This document shows, one piece after another, positions 6,123-64,000 of a stretch of 64,000 bases of DNA. How positions within the stretch are numbered: the stretch's first letter is position 1; each line of letters begins with the position of its first letter. Both the position numbers and the translations under genes were made by a program. The notes under the pieces are model-generated. The model did no database searches, was not told where the DNA came from, and saw only the letters and a list, made by a program, of their open reading frames with translations. This stretch comes from Escherichia coli (GTDB taxonomy: Bacteria > Pseudomonadota > Gammaproteobacteria > Enterobacterales > Enterobacteriaceae): assembly GCF_013315695.1 (NCBI RefSeq), contig NZ_CP054353.1; one strand, given 5' to 3'.

Positions 6123-6980
6123 ATGAAAGCACCAGGCTTGCCCGCCGATCAACAATTTTTCGCCGATCTGTTCAGCGGCCTGGTGCTTAACCCGCAACTA
6201 CTGGGGCGCGTCTGGTTTGCCAGCCAGCCTGCCTCATTGCCAGTGGGCAGTTTATGTATTGATTTTCCCCGTCTGGATATCGTGCTACGCGGCGAATACG
6301 GCAATCTGCTGGAAGCAAAGCAGCAACGTATGGTGGAAGGAGAAATGCTGTTTATTCCGGCACGCGCGGCTAATTTACCGGTCAACAACAAACCGGTGAT
6401 GCTGTTAAGCCTGGTGTTCGCACCGACCTGGCTTGGGTTATCGTTTTACGATAGCCGCACCACGTCGTTGTTGCATCCTGCCCGCCAGATCCAGCTTCCC
6501 AGCCTGCAACGCGGCGAAGGTGAAGCGATGCTTACCGCCCTCACCCATCTTAGCCGTTCGCCGCTGGAGCAGAATATCATTCAGCCACTGGTGTTAAGTT
6601 TGCTGCATCTTTGCCGCAACGTGGTGAATATGCCACCGGGCAATTCGCAGCCGCGCGGCGATTTTCTCTATCACAGCATTTGTAACTGGGTTCAGGATAA
6701 TTATGCCCAGCAGCTCACCCGCGAGAGCGTGGCTCAGTTTTTTAATATCACGCCCAATCATCTGTCAAAACTGTTTGCTCAGCATGGAACAATGCGTTTT
6801 ATCGAGTATGTTCGCTGGGTACGAATGGCAAAGGCAAGGATGATTTTGCAGAAATATCATCTGTCGATTCATGAAGTGGCACAGCGTTGCGGTTTTCCGG
6901 ACAGCGACTATTTTTGTCGCATTTTCCGGCGTCAGTTTGGCCTGACGCCGGGAGAGTACAGCGCCCGTTTTCAGGGCTAA
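6123..6980 (+). CDS. ypdC: AraC/XylS-family transcriptional regulator, 285 aa
   Basis: C-terminal AraC-type HTH region (HLSKLF...RFIEYVRWVRMAKA...); 13 bp downstream of ypdB. Confidence 0.85.
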   Translation: MKAPGLPADQQFFADLFSGLVLNPQLLGRVWFASQPASLPVGSLCIDFPRLDIVLRGEYGNLLEAKQQRMVEGEMLFIPARAANLPVNNKPVMLLSLVFAPTWLGLSFYDSRTTSLLHPARQIQLPSLQRGEGEAMLTALTHLSRSPLEQNIIQPLVLSLLHLCRNVVNMPPGNSQPRGDFLYHSICNWVQDNYAQQLTRESVAQFFNITPNHLSKLFAQHGTMRFIEYVRWVRMAKARMILQKYHLSIHEVAQRCGFPDSDYFCRIFRRQFGLTPGEYSARFQG

Positions 6981-6982
6981 CG

Positions 6983-9478
6983 TCAGAAGGTTAATTCCGT
7001 TTCCAGCAGCGTCAGGATGCTTTGCGCATCTTGCGCGGCGAACAGCGACTGGCGGAAGTTTTTATTCACCAGTTTGCGCGCCAGCTGCGAGAAGACTTTC
7101 ACATGGCTCATCCCTTCGTTAGCACCTAACGTCAGCATGATCACCAGTTCGACTTCGCCCATTTCTGACTGCCAGTCAACCGGTTTCACCAGCCGGGCAA
7201 TGCTGATACTGGAATGACGGATCCACTGAGATTTGGTGTGCGGGATCGCTACGCCAAAACCAACGCCGGTGGTAACAATCTCTTCCCGCTGCCAGACATC
7301 TTCTTCCAGCTCAAACGGATGTTCAGTACGCCCGTTAACGCCGAGGTTACCGCACAGGAACTGGATCGCCTGCTCTTTATTGCTAAAGGCCTGATCAACG
7401 AAGATATTCTCCAGCGCCAGCAGCGGGCGAACGTCTTCTTCCGGCGTAAACGCGGTGAGTAACGCTTCAATCTCCTGCGCGCTGCGGCATTCACATGCCT
7501 GACGCGCCAGTTCCCGACACGCCTCGCTATCCAGTTGACGAAGCTGGCTTTTCACCGCCGGAATGCGCGGGCTACTCATACTCAGCTCGTCCAGGCCCAG
7601 CCCAAGCAGTAGCGGCAGATAACGACTTTCACCGCCCAGTTCACCGCAAATACCTACCCATTTACCCCGCTGATGCGCAGTGGTAACAATCTGCTGCAAC
7701 ATGCGCAGGAACGATGGCGTAATCGGGTTATACAGCGGCGATACGCGCGGGTTATTACGATCGACCGCATACAGATACTGGGTCATATCGTTGGAGCCGA
7801 TACTGAAGAAATCGACCTCATCGCAGAAGTGATCGATGATGTAGCACACCGACGGCACTTCCACCATGATACCCAGCGTAATCGTCTCTGCATGACGCAG
7901 GCCATCGCGCTTAAGCTCAACGATCGCTTTTTGGATCTCGCCCTTCACCCATAAGATCTGATCGAGGCTGTGAACCATCGGGATCATCAACTGGGCGTTG
8001 CCGAAACAGGCAGCACGCAAAATCGCCCGCAGTTGAGTGCGGAACAGGCCAGCAAATTCCGGGTAAATACGTACCGCGCGATAGCCGAGGAACGGGTTCT
8101 CTTCCTGGGGAATATTCAGATAAGGAATGCTTTTATCGCCGCCGATGTCCATCGTGCGGAAGATAATCGGCTTGTCGCCCGCCGCCAGTAGCACCTGCTG
8201 GTAGGCTTCAAATTGCTCCTGCTCGTCCGGCGCGCTGTCGCGATCCATATAGAGCATTTCGGTACGGAACAGCCCGACACCTTCCGCGCCGTTGGCAAAC
8301 GCGCCTGGCGCTTCCAGCGCGGTGCCGATATTCGCCGCAATATCAATACGCTTGTTATCACGGGAATAGGCCAGCTGCGCGGCGGCCTGCGCCTGTTGTT
8401 TTTGGCGTTTATCCGCCAGCGTCTGCGCAACCTGATAATAACCGCTCACCGCGTCATTCGGGTTAATCGCCAGCACGCCGCACTGGGCGTCAAGCACTGC
8501 AGGTTGCCCGGCATAACGGGCAATCGCATCCAGCGGCAGGCCGCTCAGTACCGGGATCGCCGAAGCGCGGGCCAGGATCAGGGTATGCGAGGTGCGCCCG
8601 GTTTTCTCCAGAATCATGCCCGCAAGATTTTTTAAATCGAGGCTCAAAAACTGGCTTGGGGTTAAATCTTCAGCCACCAGAATAGTCGGTTTTTCAAGCA
8701 CCAGATTATTGCGCGGTTTTAGTTCCGGCCAGGTGATATGCAGCAACTGTTCGCTGATATCGCGAATGTCGCTGACCCGCTCGCGCAGATAATCGCTGGC
8801 AGAAGCAGAAAGTTTGGCACAAACCTGCTCCATATTGCTGATGATCGCCGCCCCCAGCCCCTGATGCTGTTCTGCCATCAGGTGACGGATATTGCCTGCA
8901 AATTCATCATCCTGAATCAGCGACAAATGGGCGCTGAGGATAGTTTTGCTTTCGCCGTCACGCTCACGCAATTGCTGGTTCAGTTGCTCGGCAAGCGTTG
9001 CCAGACTGTGCTCCAGCAGGGTGGAATCTTGCGCACTGGCCGGTATTGCCCGATAACTGTCGAGGCTGTCGCTCTGTAACAGGGTCAGCGTACCCACGCC
9101 GACGCCGCTTGCCAGCACATTGCCGTACAGTAAATCAGGATTCAGACGGCTTAATGAACGCGGCAGCGGATGCGCCGTCAGTTCTGCCTGCGTTGGCTGG
9201 ACGCTGTCGCTGTCGATAAAGCGCGCCTGGATGTACTCTTCCAGCACGCGCCGCGCCTGCTCTTCATCGCTGCCGCTAATGTTCAGGCTGCAACTGTCAT
9301 TAAATAGGGTGCCGGTGCCAATCAGCGCCAGCGAGCTTTTCGCATCTGCCTTTGCGTTCTGGCGATGGTTGATGAAGGTGATTTCGCTTTGCCACTGGCT
9401 GCACTGTTCTTTAAGTTCCCACGCCGGACGAGCATGCAGACCGTTAGGCAGAGGACAGAGAAATTGAATCGTTAGCAT
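6983..9478 (-). CDS. fryA: PTS multiphosphoryl transfer protein (EIIA-HPr-EI fusion), 831 aa
   Basis: N-terminal HPr-like domain (GLHARPA), internal EI core and C-terminal EIIA-like domain; last gene of a minus-strand operon. Confidence 0.9.
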   Translation of the reverse strand: MLTIQFLCPLPNGLHARPAWELKEQCSQWQSEITFINHRQNAKADAKSSLALIGTGTLFNDSCSLNISGSDEEQARRVLEEYIQARFIDSDSVQPTQAELTAHPLPRSLSRLNPDLLYGNVLASGVGVGTLTLLQSDSLDSYRAIPASAQDSTLLEHSLATLAEQLNQQLRERDGESKTILSAHLSLIQDDEFAGNIRHLMAEQHQGLGAAIISNMEQVCAKLSASASDYLRERVSDIRDISEQLLHITWPELKPRNNLVLEKPTILVAEDLTPSQFLSLDLKNLAGMILEKTGRTSHTLILARASAIPVLSGLPLDAIARYAGQPAVLDAQCGVLAINPNDAVSGYYQVAQTLADKRQKQQAQAAAQLAYSRDNKRIDIAANIGTALEAPGAFANGAEGVGLFRTEMLYMDRDSAPDEQEQFEAYQQVLLAAGDKPIIFRTMDIGGDKSIPYLNIPQEENPFLGYRAVRIYPEFAGLFRTQLRAILRAACFGNAQLMIPMVHSLDQILWVKGEIQKAIVELKRDGLRHAETITLGIMVEVPSVCYIIDHFCDEVDFFSIGSNDMTQYLYAVDRNNPRVSPLYNPITPSFLRMLQQIVTTAHQRGKWVGICGELGGESRYLPLLLGLGLDELSMSSPRIPAVKSQLRQLDSEACRELARQACECRSAQEIEALLTAFTPEEDVRPLLALENIFVDQAFSNKEQAIQFLCGNLGVNGRTEHPFELEEDVWQREEIVTTGVGFGVAIPHTKSQWIRHSSISIARLVKPVDWQSEMGEVELVIMLTLGANEGMSHVKVFSQLARKLVNKNFRQSLFAAQDAQSILTLLETELTF

Positions 9479-14419: not shown

Positions 14420-14622
14420 TCTTCAACTGCTCCGCTAAAGTCAAAATAATTCTTTCTCACACTGTAAATACCTGGGGGCATAACAACAACGCCGGAAAGG
14501 CAGGCTCCCTGTAAATATCGATCTGGGTCACACAATTACTTTATCGTTTCAGCACCAATTGCAGCGATGCCTTTTTGCAAGCTGGGCAAACTAAGTATCT
14601 GACCCCGCATAAGGAATAGAAC

Positions 14623-18035: not shown

Positions 18036-19238
18036 ATGGACCGCGTCCTTCATTTTGTACTGGCACTTGCCGTTGTTGCGATTCTCGCACTGCTGGTAAG
18101 CAGCGACCGCAAAAAAATTCGTATCCGTTATGTTATTCAACTGCTTGTTATCGAAGTGTTACTGGCGTGGTTCTTCCTGAACTCCGACGTTGGTTTAGGC
18201 TTCGTGAAAGGCTTCTCCGAAATGTTCGAAAAACTGCTCGGATTTGCCAACGAAGGGACTAACTTCGTCTTTGGTAGCATGAATGATCAAGGCCTGGCAT
18301 TCTTCTTTCTGAAAGTGCTGTGCCCAATCGTCTTTATCTCTGCATTGATCGGTATTCTCCAGCACATTCGCGTGTTGCCAGTGATTATCCGCGCAATTGG
18401 TTTCCTGCTTTCCAAAGTCAACGGTATGGGCAAACTGGAATCCTTTAACGCCGTCAGCTCCCTGATTCTGGGTCAGTCTGAAAACTTTATTGCCTATAAA
18501 GATATCCTCGGCAAAATCTCCCGCAATCGTATGTACACCATGGCAGCAACGGCGATGTCCACCGTGTCGATGTCCATCGTTGGTGCATACATGACCATGC
18601 TGGAGCCGAAATATGTCGTTGCGGCGCTGGTACTGAACATGTTCAGCACCTTTATCGTGCTGTCGCTGATCAACCCTTACCGTGTTGATGCCAGTGAAGA
18701 AAACATTCAGATGTCCAACCTGCACGAAGGTCAGAGCTTCTTCGAAATGCTGGGTGAATACATTCTGGCAGGTTTCAAAGTTGCCATTATCGTTGCCGCA
18801 ATGCTGATCGGCTTTATCGCCCTGATCGCCGCGCTGAACGCACTGTTTGCTACCGTGACTGGCTGGTTTGGCTACAGCATCTCCTTCCAGGGCATCCTGG
18901 GCTACATCTTCTATCCGATTGCATGGGTGATGGGTGTTCCTTCCAGTGAAGCACTGCAAGTGGGCAGTATCATGGCGACCAAACTGGTTTCCAACGAGTT
19001 CGTTGCGATGATGGATCTGCAGAAAATTGCTTCCACGCTCTCTCCGCGTGCTGAAGGCATCATCTCTGTGTTCCTGGTTTCCTTCGCTAACTTCTCATCA
19101 ATCGGGATTATCGCAGGTGCAGTTAAAGGCCTGAATGAAGAGCAAGGTAACGTGGTTTCTCGCTTCGGTCTGAAACTGGTTTACGGCTCTACCCTGGTGA
19201 GTGTGCTGTCTGCGTCAATCGCAGCACTGGTGCTGTAA
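18036..19238 (+). CDS. nupC: concentrative nucleoside:H+ symporter (CNT family), 400 aa
   Basis: ORF 17997-19238; chose ATG at 18036 (MDRVLHF) with GGAG upstream. Confidence 0.9.
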
Positions 19239-19257
19239 GACCATACATAAAAAAGCC

Positions 19258-19270
19258 GGGGATAATTCCC
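19258..19270. repeat. left 13-bp target-site duplication of IS4
   Basis: GGGGATAATTCCC immediately outside the IS4 end; identical copy at 20697-20709. Confidence 0.75.
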
Positions 19271-20696
19271 TAATGCCAGTCAGTTAAGCAACTGACTGGC
19301 TCTTTTTCGGGGCTGTGGGGTATTTCCAGGGCCTCTCCTTTACCACTCTCGGGAAGGCCCTTTCCCTTCTTGTCGGTAATTTCACAAGTTGTCCCATACT
19401 TGCAAGATCGCGCATCAGCTCCGGTATACGTCCCGGTGAAGCGCCCTGCAATGTCATCAGCATTCTCATCACCATTCCGCATGATTCTGAGAAACTCAGT
19501 TGATTCGGCCAGTAACCTTTCAGATGTTCCGCCATTTTAATCATCTGATATCTCACCAGATTATAAGCCAGTAAGACACCCCACAGCTCTTGCTCCACAA
19601 GCTCCGGTTTTTTACTTCTCAGCGTCAGCCTGCTCAGTTGCATCGTCTGTTTTATCTCCCTGTATCCCAGTTCGATTTCCCAGCGATGACTGTACAGATC
19701 CGCCATTTCTCCTCCGGGGAAGCGCATGGCGTCCGTCATCGACGTCAGCAGATGGCAGACTTTTCCTTTGCGCGTCACGGTCAGCAGGCGGGCTGTCACT
19801 TCATTTCCCAGTCCCGGCCACTTTTTTCGTGCCTGCGGGCTGGTTTTCAGCTTCACCAGATGATCGCCTTTACCCAGTTTTCTGATCTCTTCATATTGCG
19901 CTCCCTTTCTGAGAGGTATCATCCAGTGGCGGTGTTCTCCCGCCAGGCTCCAGGCATTTAACAGTCCCAGTGAGTAATAACCTTTATCCATTAACGTCAG
20001 AGTGTTATCGCCGGTTTGTTCTATAAGTTGCTCAGCAAGCTCATTTTCGCTGTTCTTCATCGTGCCGAAGGCTGCAGCCGTCAGCAGATGGCTGGTCAGT
20101 TCCATCTGGCAGACCATTTTGACCTGCGGGTAGAGCGCCGGGTTCCCGGCATGTGTCTGGCGGGGGAAGGCTGCATCGTTCTCTGGTGTATCCGGTGTGC
20201 GCCAGAACACACCATCGATGGCCAGCAGGGTCAGGCCGCACCAGTGCGGATGCGGCGTGGCGTTATGCCAGAGCTGCGCTGTTTTCGTGAACACGCGGCG
20301 GACAGCCTCACTTCCCAGGCGCTGGCGGGCCTGAATAACGGCACTGGGGGCAACGAAGGGGCGATTGCCCGGCAGCATGATGTCCAGGCGATTCACAATC
20401 TGGTGAAGAGGTTCTTTACGCTCAAGCGCCATGCCAACAATACACCAGACCATCATTTCGAGGGGAAGACGGCGCTTGCGTAGCGTTACAGTACCTGATT
20501 CGGCAAGGCAACGAGAGATGAGTTCGGGGTCGAGGTAATCCCCCAGAGAAGTCAGTGGGTTACGCAGAGAATCGTAACGGGATACCAGATCAAGAGCCTG
20601 TCCAATGTGCATAAAAAAATCCGGAAACAAGTGAGCGTTTCCGGATTCTTACACAGCCACTGGATCGGTCAACTGATCCTTAACTGATCGGCATTA
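19271..20696 (-). mobile_element. IS4 insertion sequence, complete (1426 bp)
   Basis: Terminal inverted repeats TAATGCCAGTCAGTTAAG (19271-19288) and TAATGCCGATCAGTTAAG (reverse complement of 20679-20696), 16 of 18 identical; length exactly 1426 bp; one 442-aa IS4-family transposase ORF; flanked by a 13-bp direct repeat. Confidence 0.85.
19284..20612 (-). CDS. insG: IS4 transposase (DDE, IS4 family), 442 aa
   Basis: ORF 19284-20630; ATG at 20612 gives MHIGQALDL... (442 aa), with an in-frame TTG 6 codons upstream; contains the IS4-family YREK signature ([15 protein letters not shown]). Confidence 0.85.
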
Positions 20697-20709
20697 GGGG
20701 ATAATTCCC
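20697..20709. repeat. right 13-bp target-site duplication of IS4
   Basis: GGGGATAATTCCC; removing IS4 and one copy restores the palindrome AAAAAAGCCGGGGATAATTCCCCGGTTTTTT. Confidence 0.75.
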
Positions 20710-27759: not shown

Positions 27760-27835
27760 GGGTGATTAGCTCAGCTGGGAGAGCACCTCCCTTACAAGGA
27801 GGGGGTCGGCGGTTCGATCCCGTCATCACCCACCA
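27760..27835 (+). tRNA. valU: tRNA-Val (anticodon UAC)
   Basis: 76 nt GGGUGAUUAGCUCAGCUGGGAGAGCACCUCCCUUACAAGGAGGGGGUCGGCGGUUCGAUCCCGUCAUCACCCACCA; anticodon loop CUUACAA; encoded CCA. Confidence 0.92.
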
Positions 27836-27879
27836 ACTACTTTATGTAGTCTCCGCCGTGTAGCAAGAAATTGAGAAGT

Positions 27880-27955
27880 GGGTGATTAGCTCAGCTGGGA
27901 GAGCACCTCCCTTACAAGGAGGGGGTCGGCGGTTCGATCCCGTCATCACCCACCA
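27880..27955 (+). tRNA. valY: tRNA-Val (anticodon UAC), identical second copy
   Basis: Exact duplicate of the previous tRNA after a 44-bp spacer; which K-12 paralog name applies is uncertain. Confidence 0.9.
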
Positions 27956-27959
27956 CTTC

Positions 27960-59407: not shown

Positions 59408-60460
59408 TCACCCCCACTCCCGCATCCGCTGATGCAGCGTCAGTGACGGCTTCTCGGCAAACAGTTGCTGATAATCCGTAGCAAATTGCCCAAGATGCCA
59501 GAATCCCCACTGCATGGCGGCGTCTTTTACCGTCATACTTTGCGACCACGGGCTTATCAGTTCGCGGCGCACGGCGTTCAGGCGAATGCGTTTCAGCCAC
59601 GCGTTTGGGCCAATGCCTAAAATAGCGTGAAAAGCGTTTTGTAGCGTGCGGCGGCTGACATGTAGTTGATTACACAAGTCCAGCACCGTCACCGGTTCGG
59701 ACATGTTTTCCAGCACATATTCACGGGCGCGGGAAAGCAATCGACGGTAACTCTGATGACTGATGCTTTCCGCCGTCACCATTGGCTGCGCTTCTTCCAG
59801 CATCGCCCCCATCGCCATTAGCAAGTTATCCCCCAGCACTTTTCGCACTGCAGGCTGATGGAGATTTTCCGGGTTCTCGCAAAACGTCGCCAGCGCCTGT
59901 TGGACAAAGCCCCACAGAGCGGCTTTATGCTGCTCTTTCACTTCCAGCGCCGACTGGCTACGCAGCATATGTAATACCCGATCCGGATTATGCAAAAAGT
60001 TAGCCTGACGAGTGATGACATCTTCAGAAAGCACTACGCCCAGGATCGTGTAATCGTCCGGCGTACTTAATTCAAACTCGGTTCCACCCGGGCGCGTCGC
60101 AATTTCTGCGCTTCCCAGACATTGCGAACCGATAAATCCCTGCTCACCGCGCGTCGCCGGAATGCCAAACCAGAACGAGTTCGGCCAGACCAGGCACGAC
60201 TGACGCAGCGCCAGACCGGTGTATTCACGAAAAACCTGAATATCATCGAGTAGAATTTCCGTAAATTCACCATGAAACTTGCCCGGATGCAGCTGATCGT
60301 AAATCTGCTGCCAGGCGGTAATCGTCAAAGCATGTTCATAGACATCCGTTGTCTGTCGTTGATGAACATTATCCACTTCGACCTTCGGCGTGAGCTTCAG
60401 GTTTTCGGGTAAGGGTTCATGATAAAGATGGTGCAAATTGGCTGTACGGGTCTTTTTCAT
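59408..60460 (-). CDS. eutR: AraC-family activator of the ethanolamine operon, 350 aa
   Basis: C-terminal AraC HTH; last gene of the minus-strand eut operon; stop 5 bp from the hemF stop. Confidence 0.9.
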
Positions 60461-60505: not shown

Positions 60506-61006
60506 TTAATGGGGCTTGAGACGGTAACGACTACTGCGTTTACGTAACGTCCCGGCAGAAAAGAGCTGTTCGAGCGCATTTCTGGCTTTTTCCAGCGGCC
60601 AGCCAAAGTGGGCAGCCACTTCTCCTGCCGTCATTCCCTGACGTACTGATGTTAACAGCGCCAACAACTCGTCAGCAGATTCCGCGTCGATAACTGGCGC
60701 GTCGGGTTCCTTTACGGGTTGCTTCGGCTGGCGGTTAAAGCCAGTAACCAGCCACTGGGTGTCATCGTCTGGCCGACCGATCTCCTTACGGCTGATGACA
60801 CGCCCGGTACGCATCGCGGCAGCACAACCTGCGTCCAGCGCCGCACGACACGCCGCCAGATCGCCTTCCACCACCAGCGTTAGGCGACCAGGGTCAAGCA
60901 CTTCATGGCTGAGCAGACGAACGTTAGCTGCTTTGAGCATGGCATCCGCTGCATCTATCGCGGCGACCATGCCGTCAACTTCCAGCAATCCCAGTGCATT
61001 GATCAT
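60506..61006 (-). CDS. eutK: ethanolamine microcompartment shell protein EutK, 166 aa
   Basis: ORF 60506-61012; chose ATG at 61006 (MINALGLLEV) with GGAGG upstream; BMC domain plus C-terminal extension. Confidence 0.85.
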   Translation of the reverse strand: MINALGLLEVDGMVAAIDAADAMLKAANVRLLSHEVLDPGRLTLVVEGDLAACRAALDAGCAAAMRTGRVISRKEIGRPDDDTQWLVTGFNRQPKQPVKEPDAPVIDAESADELLALLTSVRQGMTAGEVAAHFGWPLEKARNALEQLFSAGTLRKRSSRYRLKPH

Positions 61007-61018
61007 CGGCAACCTCCG

Positions 61019-61678
61019 TTACGCACGCTGGATTGGATTACGCGCGATTTCCAGCACTGCATCGGTAAAGGCGTTACAGGCTGCTTTACACGCGGCCTGG
61101 CTACCGGTTAAAAATGCTGCCGAGTAGTTGGTTTCAGACGGTGGCGGGACATAGGTCACCAGCTGCACGTCGGCAGATTTCAACGCTGCATCAATGCCGT
61201 AGGTCGCTTCCAGCGGCGGTGCCACCAGATACGCCATCGGATCGCCAAGCGTGATCCCGGCGGTTGATGAGAGATAAGAACCGGTACGCGAAACGACATG
61301 TGCCAGGAAGGCTGTATTTTCTGCGTCATTAGCCCACTGGAAAGCAGCGCCATTTTCAATATGCGCAACCATCGCATCCAGACCAGCACGCACTTCCGCC
61401 GGGTTTGGCCCACCCAGCATAATCAGCACTTCACCGGCAGTCGGTGACGGGCCGTGTGCGGCTCCCGCATACAGCGAGCGGCCATACACCACTTCCACCA
61501 TCGCCTGCTTGGTCGCTTCGTCAGCCGCAATGTAGGTGACGTCATCTGAATCAGCAGAAATCAGCCCGAGGCTACGAATATGCGGCGGCAATTTCAGTTC
61601 ACGTGCAAATTCGGCGTTAACGGAGGCAATCACCCGCATGGCGGTTACCGACGGTCGAATCAAATCTAAAGCTGGCAT
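61019..61678 (-). CDS. eutL: ethanolamine microcompartment shell protein EutL, 219 aa
   Basis: Tandem BMC-domain protein. Confidence 0.9.
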
Positions 61679-61687
61679 GATGCCTCC

Positions 61688-62575
61688 TTATCGGGTCATG
61701 TTGATGCCGGATGCTTTCTGCTCCAGCATACGTTTCGCCAAATCCACAATGACGGCTGCGGCTTCAACCGGCGGCGTGCCGCCCTGGTGAATGTTAGAGA
61801 TACAGGTGCGATCGGCCTCAACGGTGGTCGCCATACGCGGCGAGTAAACGGCGTAGCAGGAGAGGCTTTCTGACTGCCCCAACCCCGGACGTTCGCCCAC
61901 CAGCAGGATCACCACTTTCGCACCGAGGATCTCACCGATCTGATCTTCAATCTTCACGCGACCATAACGAACAAAGAATGGCGTACCAACTTTCAGCCCG
62001 GCCTGTTTCAGGCCCGCCATCAGCGGCGGCAGGATCTCTTCGTAGTTCACGGTGATCGCATCAGTTGACAGGCCATCAGAAATAACGACCTGCACGTCCG
62101 GATTAGCAACACACTGTGCTTTCAGCGCTTCAACAGCTTCTGCACACAGGCGGCGGCCCATATCCGGGCGAGTCAGGTAGAGATTTTTGTCGCTGATTTC
62201 GGAGCGGACTTCCAGCAAGCCCTGCGCTTTCACCCACTCTTCCGGCACTTCTTTCAGTACAGTATCTTTCGAACGAGAGTGATCGGCCAGGAAACGCAGC
62301 AACGCCTGGGTACGCGGACGCGGACCGGCACGACCGGTACAAACGCGGGCCACGGTGCTGCGACGCAGTTCTGTTAATACGTCTGCGCGATGCGGGTTTT
62401 CAACACCAATCCACGCTTTTGCTTCCGCAGAGCCTAAATCCAGCGCGCAGCTTTCCGAGGTCACCGGTGCCGCACAGGTGGTGGTGGCGCACTTTGCTTC
62501 TGACGGCGCGGGGGCCGCTTGTCCCATTGACGCCATCACGCTGCGTACAATTTCTTCAATCTGTTTTTGATCCAT
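61688..62575 (-). CDS. eutC: ethanolamine ammonia-lyase small subunit, 295 aa
   Basis: EutC family, follows eutB. Confidence 0.9.
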
Positions 62576-62595: not shown

Positions 62596-63957
62596 TCAGA
62601 AGAACAGTGACGGATCGCCCGCCCGTTTGGTCAGGCGACCGTTTGCCATAATGCCCATGCTTTCCAGCCAGCGTTCAAACTCCGGTGACGGGCGCAGGTT
62701 GAGTAACTGACGCACAGTGGCAGTGTCGTGGAATGCGGTGGTCTGATAGTTGAGCATGATGTCATCACCCAGCGGCATCCCCATGATGTAGTTGCAGCCT
62801 GCGGTGGCGAGCAGGATCATCAGGTTTTCGTTGAGGTTCTGGTCAGCGTCAGCGTGGTTGGTGTAGCAGCAGTCACAGCCCATAGAGATGCCGCTCAGCT
62901 TGCCCATAAAGTGATCTTCTAAGCCCGCGCGGATAATCTGGCGGTCGTTGTAGAGATACTCCGGCCCAATAAAACCGACCACGGTGTTGACGATAAACGG
63001 ATCGTAATGACGCGCCAGCCCATAGTTACGCGCTTCCATCGTCACCTGGTCAGCGCCGAAGTTAGCGCCAGCAGACAGCGCCGAACCTTGTCCGGTTTCG
63101 AAGTAGAGGCAGTTTTCCCCAGCGATACGGTTAAACTCTGCACCCACTGCGCGCGCTTCGTCGAGCATCGCCAGCTCCACGCCAAACTCTTTCAGCCCTT
63201 TTTCGCTGCCGCAAATACTCTGGAAAATCAGCCCGCCCGGTGCGCCGCGACGAATCGCTTCGATCTGGGTGGTGACGTGCGCCAGTACGCAGCCCTGAGT
63301 TGGGATGTTGAATTTGTCGATCACGCCATAGATGGTATCCAACACGCGGCTTAAGTTTTCCACGTCGTCCGTCACCGGGTTAACGCCGATCACCGCATCG
63401 CCCACCCCGAAGGAAAGCCCTTCGTAGATTTGCGCGGCGATACTTTGCACATCGTCACGGGTATCGTTTGGCTGCAAGCGGGCGCTAAAGGTGCCCGGAA
63501 TACCGATGGTGGTATTGGCCTTTTTGATCACCGGCATTTTCTTCGCGCCGTAGATCAGGTCCGCGTTAGAACTGATCTTCGCCACCGCCGCGACCACTTC
63601 CGAGGTCAGCCCTTTGCGGGTAAAGGCAATGTCGTCAACGCTGGTTTCGTCGCTCAGGACGTATTCACGCAGTTCGCTGATGCTCCAGTTTTTAATCTGG
63701 TTGTAGGCCGTTTCGTTAACATCGTCCTGAATCAGCCGCGTCACGCAGTCATCTTCATAGGCAATCACCGGATTATTGCGGATGTCCGCTACGGTCATTT
63801 CCGACAACACCTGCTTTGCCGCCACGCGCTCCTGTGAACTTGCCGCTGCAACGCCTGCCAGCACATCCCCCGAACGCAGTTCGTTGGCTTTAGCCAGCAC
63901 CTCTTTTACATCCTTAAACTGATATACATTGCCGAACAATGTGGTCTTTAGTTTCAT
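62596..63957 (-). CDS. eutB: ethanolamine ammonia-lyase large subunit, 453 aa
   Basis: Full-length EutB; ATG at 63957 with GAGGGA upstream. Confidence 0.95.
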   Translation of the reverse strand: MKLKTTLFGNVYQFKDVKEVLAKANELRSGDVLAGVAAASSQERVAAKQVLSEMTVADIRNNPVIAYEDDCVTRLIQDDVNETAYNQIKNWSISELREYVLSDETSVDDIAFTRKGLTSEVVAAVAKISSNADLIYGAKKMPVIKKANTTIGIPGTFSARLQPNDTRDDVQSIAAQIYEGLSFGVGDAVIGVNPVTDDVENLSRVLDTIYGVIDKFNIPTQGCVLAHVTTQIEAIRRGAPGGLIFQSICGSEKGLKEFGVELAMLDEARAVGAEFNRIAGENCLYFETGQGSALSAGANFGADQVTMEARNYGLARHYDPFIVNTVVGFIGPEYLYNDRQIIRAGLEDHFMGKLSGISMGCDCCYTNHADADQNLNENLMILLATAGCNYIMGMPLGDDIMLNYQTTAFHDTATVRQLLNLRPSPEFERWLESMGIMANGRLTKRAGDPSLFF

Positions 63958-63969
63958 AAGTCGTTCCCT

Positions 63970-64000
63970 CAGGAAGGAAATGCGAGTGATTTCACCGTCA
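63970..64000 (-). CDS. eutA: 3' end of an upstream minus-strand gene (probably eutA), partial
   Basis: Minus-strand frame open from the window edge to a TGA at 63972-63970, 12 bp before the eutB start; identity inferred only from eut operon order. Confidence 0.3.

Follow-up and report, generated by a model that had tools for sequence, protein, structure and literature searches.

The ethanolamine utilization (eut) operon of Escherichia coli comprises 17 genes, from eutS to eutR, and the stretch of DNA that we analyzed (64,000 nt of contig NZ_CP054353.1, assembly GCF_013315695.1; hereafter the window) ends inside it. Five genes, eutB to eutR, lie within the window, the other 12 genes are located past position 64000 together with the main promoter, and 43 nt separate the eutB start codon from the window edge. 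These 43 nt raise the question of whether eutA and eutB adjoin each other in this strain or are separated by an integrated element. A reading of the sequence alone had proposed that eutA abuts eutB, citing a minus-strand reading frame that is open to the window edge, and had taken the strain to carry an intact eut operon. Our analyses support the first of these proposals: we conclude, with a probability of about 0.97, that the 43 nt represent the eutA-eutB junction of the E. coli eut operon in its native, unoccupied form, and no observation spoke against this reading. The second proposal extends to DNA outside the window and is considered separately below.

Anatomy of the eutA-eutB Junction

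Read along the minus strand from position 64000 to 63958, the 43 nt are TGACGGTGAAATCACTCGCATTTCCTTCCTGAGGGAACGACTT, and the strand continues immediately after 63958 with ATGAAACTAAAG…, the ATG of eutB being at 63957. The frame that begins at 63998 translates as TVKSLAFPS* and terminates in a TGA at 63971-63969. We assign this frame to the 3' end of eutA (table 1) given that all 32 nt are identical to the end of K-12 eutA and that, in relatives that are 100% identical here, the same sequence continues into a full-length eutA. The window thus contains an eutA stop codon, an 11-nt spacer and an eutB start codon in direct succession. The core of the eutB Shine-Dalgarno sequence, GAGG(G)/GAGGG at 63970-63966, overlaps the eutA stop codon. 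This arrangement refines the spacing given in the sequence-only reading, in which the frame was said to end 12 bp before the eutB Shine-Dalgarno sequence and start: counting from the last base of the stop codon to the A of the ATG does give 12 positions, but the Shine-Dalgarno sequence, instead of coming after the stop codon, shares bases with it.

The openness of the frame, in contrast to its identity, is not evidence for eutA. The frame that continues in phase into eutB likewise runs open to the window edge (DGEITRISFLRERL) and the third minus-strand frame contains two stops; with only one frame in three closed, openness over 43 nt carries no information. One could accordingly suppose that the open frame is a meaningless chance feature, but the frame encodes the exact C-terminus of EutA and its DNA is eutA in thousands of genomes, and we give this explanation next to no weight.

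The anatomy of the junction, together with established knowledge of the operon, suggests that eutB, eutC, eutL, eutK, and eutR would be co-transcribed with eutA on a transcript whose promoter precedes eutS. The tight spacing of eutA and eutB and the overlap of the ribosome-binding site with the stop codon further suggest that ribosomes ending eutA could start eutB, that is, that the two genes may be translationally coupled. The five eut genes of the window are all full length with no internal stops, and their products are 97.7-99.8% identical to the K-12 proteins; at the DNA level, eutB is 100% identical to the annotated eutB of five complete genomes.

Table 1. Features of the eut operon located in the window.
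Feature	Position	Strand	Description and basis
eutA, 3' end	63969..64000	-	Last 32 nt: partial codon, nine sense codons (TVKSLAFPS) and stop; runs off the window edge
Single CTTCCTGA copy, 8 bp	63969..63976	-	Unoccupied integration site (predicted attB core) of IntZ-type elements; K-12 and EC291 junctions
eutA-eutB spacer GGGAACGACTT, 11 nt	63958..63968	-	Direct read; identical next to K-12 eutB
eutB	62596..63957	-	Ethanolamine ammonia-lyase large subunit, 453 aa, intact; 452/453 residues identical to K-12 EutB
eutC	61688..62575	-	Ethanolamine ammonia-lyase small subunit, 295 aa, intact; 294/295 identical to K-12
eutL	61019..61678	-	Microcompartment shell protein, 219 aa, intact; 214/219 identical to K-12
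eutK	60506..61006	-	Microcompartment shell protein, 166 aa from ATG, intact; 164/166 identical to K-12
eutR	59408..60460	-	AraC-type activator of the operon, 350 aa, intact, last operon gene; 348/350 identical to K-12

Comparison with the Occupied Site of K-12

The statement in the sequence-only reading that K-12 carries the CPZ-55 prophage between eutA and eutB agrees with the MG1655 annotation, in which eutB occupies 2557318-2558679, CPZ-55 occupies 2558691-2565480, and eutA occupies 2565481-2566884. All the prophage genes, intZ and yffL to yffS, run antisense to eut. A base-by-base comparison shows where the two sequences part. On the eutA side, the first 32 of the 43 nt match the K-12 eutA 3' end (32/32), at which point K-12 enters prophage DNA (ATGCGGTATTC…); on the eutB side, the last 19 nt match the K-12 DNA adjoining eutB (19/19), and the K-12 DNA that precedes it is prophage (…GCCAATCATCGATT). 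The 32-nt and 19-nt stretches overlap by 8 nt, CTTCCTGA, which is present in two copies in K-12, one per CPZ-55 end, and in one copy in the window (63976-63969).

Given that K-12 diverges into CPZ-55 19-20 nt upstream of the eutB ATG whereas the window stays in eutA for 24 more nt, these 24 nt are diagnostic and the short upstream sequence is sufficient to separate the occupied from the empty state. We considered whether the 43 nt might be uninformative because a prophage end copies the end of eutA, and rejected this idea as the K-12 duplication is 8 bp only. The site in the window is therefore an empty integration site: a single CTTCCTGA core is present, the sequence more than 19-20 nt ahead of the eutB ATG is not that of a prophage end, and the position directly upstream of eutB where the end of CPZ-55 or another IntZ-type element would lie holds eutA sequence instead. 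The sequence-only reading had named upstream DNA matching prophage as the observation that would overturn it; in the comparison with K-12, the window matches eutA where K-12 is prophage.

The alternative that this strain carries a CPZ-55-type prophage or island between eutA and eutB, with the 43 nt being its end, derives some prior plausibility from the roughly 8% of E. coli genomes in which the site is occupied and from the fact that the eutB-side junction of such an element retains the 19 nt adjoining eutB. However, the elements in K-12 and in strain EC291 (described below) both diverge 19-20 nt from the ATG, at a distance where the window remains exactly eutA for another 24 nt, and, among the matches listed, the occupied genomes K-12 MG1655 and CPww7 match the junction sequence over 32 of 43 nt on the eutA side and not on the eutB side. 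We regard an occupied site as extremely improbable, and the unoccupied junction is retained.

IntZ-Type Elements and the Nature of the 8-bp Core

CPZ-55 is not the only element to use this site. The pig isolate EC291 carries, between eutB and eutA, a different island of ~10.3 kb (NZ_AP027445.1, 13990-24303), which is likewise flanked by CTTCCTGA next to the eutA stop codon and diverges 19-20 nt from the eutB ATG. Its integrase gene is an intZ with ~86% DNA identity to K-12 intZ, and its cargo consists of gadC, a murI-like gene, a decarboxylase pseudogene, and IS1. The eutA-eutB position has been described as a prophage insertion hot spot, with a "novel prophage" there in the uropathogenic (UPEC) strain U71 (PMC6652756). 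The 8-bp duplication at the CPZ-55 ends has also been published, written as TCAGGAAG (PMC6379469).

Given that two diverged IntZ elements share the exact 8 bp and that excision is precise, we infer that CTTCCTGA is the crossover core of an att site rather than a transposon-type target duplication, as it is worded in the review. The 8 bp, stop codon included, would then be the crossover site for IntZ-type tyrosine-integrase elements such as CPZ-55, empty in the window.

Precise excision of CPZ-55 has been reported for ER2796 (PMC4444293), and the prophage is missing from XL1-Blue (PMC11148124); its absence has also been published for one laboratory's W3110. A record labelled DH5a (NZ_CP076470.1, 3500-3512) has a clean eutA-eutB junction and lacks CPZ-55, which fits the excision published for ER2796 and the absence from XL1-Blue and W3110. 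The consequences of occupancy are known from the K-12 derivative BW25113: in response to ethanolamine and B12 it induces eutS and eutR, whereas eutB stays uninduced and microcompartments are not formed (PMC7617246). Ethanolamine does not serve this strain as a nitrogen source, and its use is regained once the prophage has been removed scarlessly (PMC11334477).

Distribution of the Uninterrupted Junction

We searched a collection of 5426 complete E. coli genomes for the junction and for intZ. The 43-mer is matched at a coverage of at least 80% in 4957 genomes (about 91%), and a 1000-bp probe centered on the junction is contiguous in 4964. Among the matches listed, all full-length 43-mer matches are identical at 43/43 positions (100%), and K-12 MG1655 and CPww7 match only the first 32 nt, on the eutA side; the 43-mer lies under annotated eutA in thousands of genomes, in agreement with the proposal that eutA abuts eutB. 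As a marker of CPZ-55 we used its intZ end; 412 of the 5426 genomes contain similar DNA, which falls into two main bands of identity, with 216 genomes at 99% or above and 194 at 80-90%; among the matches listed, the upper band consists throughout of K-12 or laboratory-derived strains. The count of 412 agrees with the published occupancy of the CPZ-55 site, 8% of 638 strains (PMC6379469).

The Remainder of the Operon in Near-Identical Relatives

The window shows 32 nt of eutA, and everything further upstream can be approached through close relatives. Five genomes (AF3, MSB1_4I, MS 21-1, AF14, and AF10) match the last 25 kb of the window (39001-64000) at ~100% with few mismatches each, AF3 and MSB1_4I having the fewest as judged by bit scores. 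Each of the five extends the 43 nt into a complete eutA of 1404 nt, with 11 nt between its end and the start of eutB. Elsewhere the operon is less uniform: all 17 eut genes are annotated as intact in two of the five (AF14 and AF10), and the other three carry eut lesions.

Two of these lesions involve IS1 in the 3' end of eutS and occur in the two closest genomes (NZ_LR898874.1, about 6656-7417; NZ_OZ547117.1, 10860-11557). In MSB1_4I, IS1A is inserted 12 nt before the eutS stop codon and is accompanied by a 9-bp duplication, CGCTTTGTG. AF3 shares the right-hand junction of this IS1 but lacks ~517 bp to its left, which comprise the promoter region of the operon and the greater part of eutS. This exact junction is found in only these two of the 5426 genomes. 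An IS1 insertion in eutS would be expected to be polar on every gene downstream of it. IS1 also occurs, at other positions in or beside eutS-eutP, in about 18 further genomes of unrelated origin (~20 in the collection overall), which suggests that the promoter-proximal end of the eut operon is a recurrent IS1 target. MS 21-1 has no IS1 there; it carries a nonsense mutation in eutE (EutE Q255*, CAG to TAG) and a frameshift in eutM (NZ_CP146670.1, 2862-4265 and 2162-2443). The latter is an extra A (+1) in an A-run near the end of the gene that changes the last EutM residues, and it could be a sequencing error.

The window strain is identical to none of the five relatives and differs from each in IS content, which is variable within this clone. 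At about 14437-14448 the window lacks a 1.4-kb ISEc45 (IS110-like) that MSB1_4I has next to glk; alignment with MSB1_4I places an IS4 copy in the window at about 19000-20700, next to nupC/pdeA; and AF14 and AF10 have an additional IS4, absent from the window, within the stretch that matches 39001-64000. Given these differences, the state of eutS in the window strain cannot be transferred from its relatives. An apparent rearrangement relative to the clone was rejected on direct comparison, which shows that the window is colinear with MSB1_4I and differs from it by one ISEc45 copy and one unit of a tRNA-Val array. The array, a tRNA-Val/Lys array by gltX at about 27760-27958, appears to be one ~120-nt unit longer in the window than in MSB1_4I, as the BLAST alignments overlap by ~199 nt in the former and by 79 nt in the latter. 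In addition, genomes of the clone encode a glycosyltransferase family 4 protein between maeB and eutS (NZ_LR898874.1, 4901-5971; another clone genome, 5970-7040); no gene is annotated between maeB and eutS in K-12.

These observations bear on the possibility that the junction is intact and the operon is inactivated outside the window by IS1 in eutS, a promoter deletion, or a nonsense mutation in eutE. Such lesions occur in three of the five nearest genomes (MSB1_4I, AF3, and MS 21-1), the two relatives with the fewest mismatches are the two with IS1, and IS content varies within the clone; on the other side stand AF14 and AF10, with every eut gene annotated as intact, and the window strain's lack of both the ISEc45 of MSB1_4I and the extra IS4 of AF14 and AF10, the strain being identical to none of the five. 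We consider inactivation elsewhere in the operon a serious contender, at somewhat less than even odds. The proposal of an intact operon therefore holds in part: the junction is uninterrupted and the five eut genes in the window are full length, but integrity of the whole operon is not established and the relatives disagree. Given that near-identical relatives with the same junction carry other lesions, an intact junction is necessary but insufficient for an intact operon.

The presence of three independent kinds of lesion in five near-identical genomes, together with the ~20 genomes of the collection that have IS1 in or beside eutS-eutP, could also be read as repeated loss of ethanolamine utilization in this tight clone by routes other than the K-12 prophage. 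We view this reading as speculative and rather unlikely. Should it hold, with selection and not IS noise or sequencing error as the cause, the implication would be that selection on eut is relaxed or negative in a lineage of the human gut and bloodstream, and eutS would also be marked as an IS1 target.

Significance and Comparison with Known Systems

The interruption in K-12, the 8-bp duplication, the frequency of ~8%, and the phenotype have all been published, and the finding of an empty site in one more strain matters little in itself. It does carry a caution: an empty CPZ-55 site is not equivalent to a functional eut operon, as close relatives carry promoter-proximal lesions.

The window can be placed among the known configurations of this locus as follows. 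K-12 MG1655 and BW25113 share with it the 32-nt eutA-side and 19-nt eutB-side flanks, and the eutB ribosome-binding site is kept in both states; they differ in having 6.8 kb of DNA with nine antisense genes between two copies of CTTCCTGA, whereas a single copy without any insertion is present in the window. The EC291 island uses the same 8-bp site, and its cargo is absent from the window. For the UPEC U71 prophage, the published description (PMC6652756) gives only the shared eutA-eutB site; its cargo also differs. Wild-type E. coli (e.g., Nissle 1917, most UPEC, O157:H7, and ST131) have the identical 43-mer with the same 11-nt spacing and do not differ from the window at the junction. The uninterrupted junction is the majority and ordinary state of E. 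coli, as was already known, and it is this state that the window shares.
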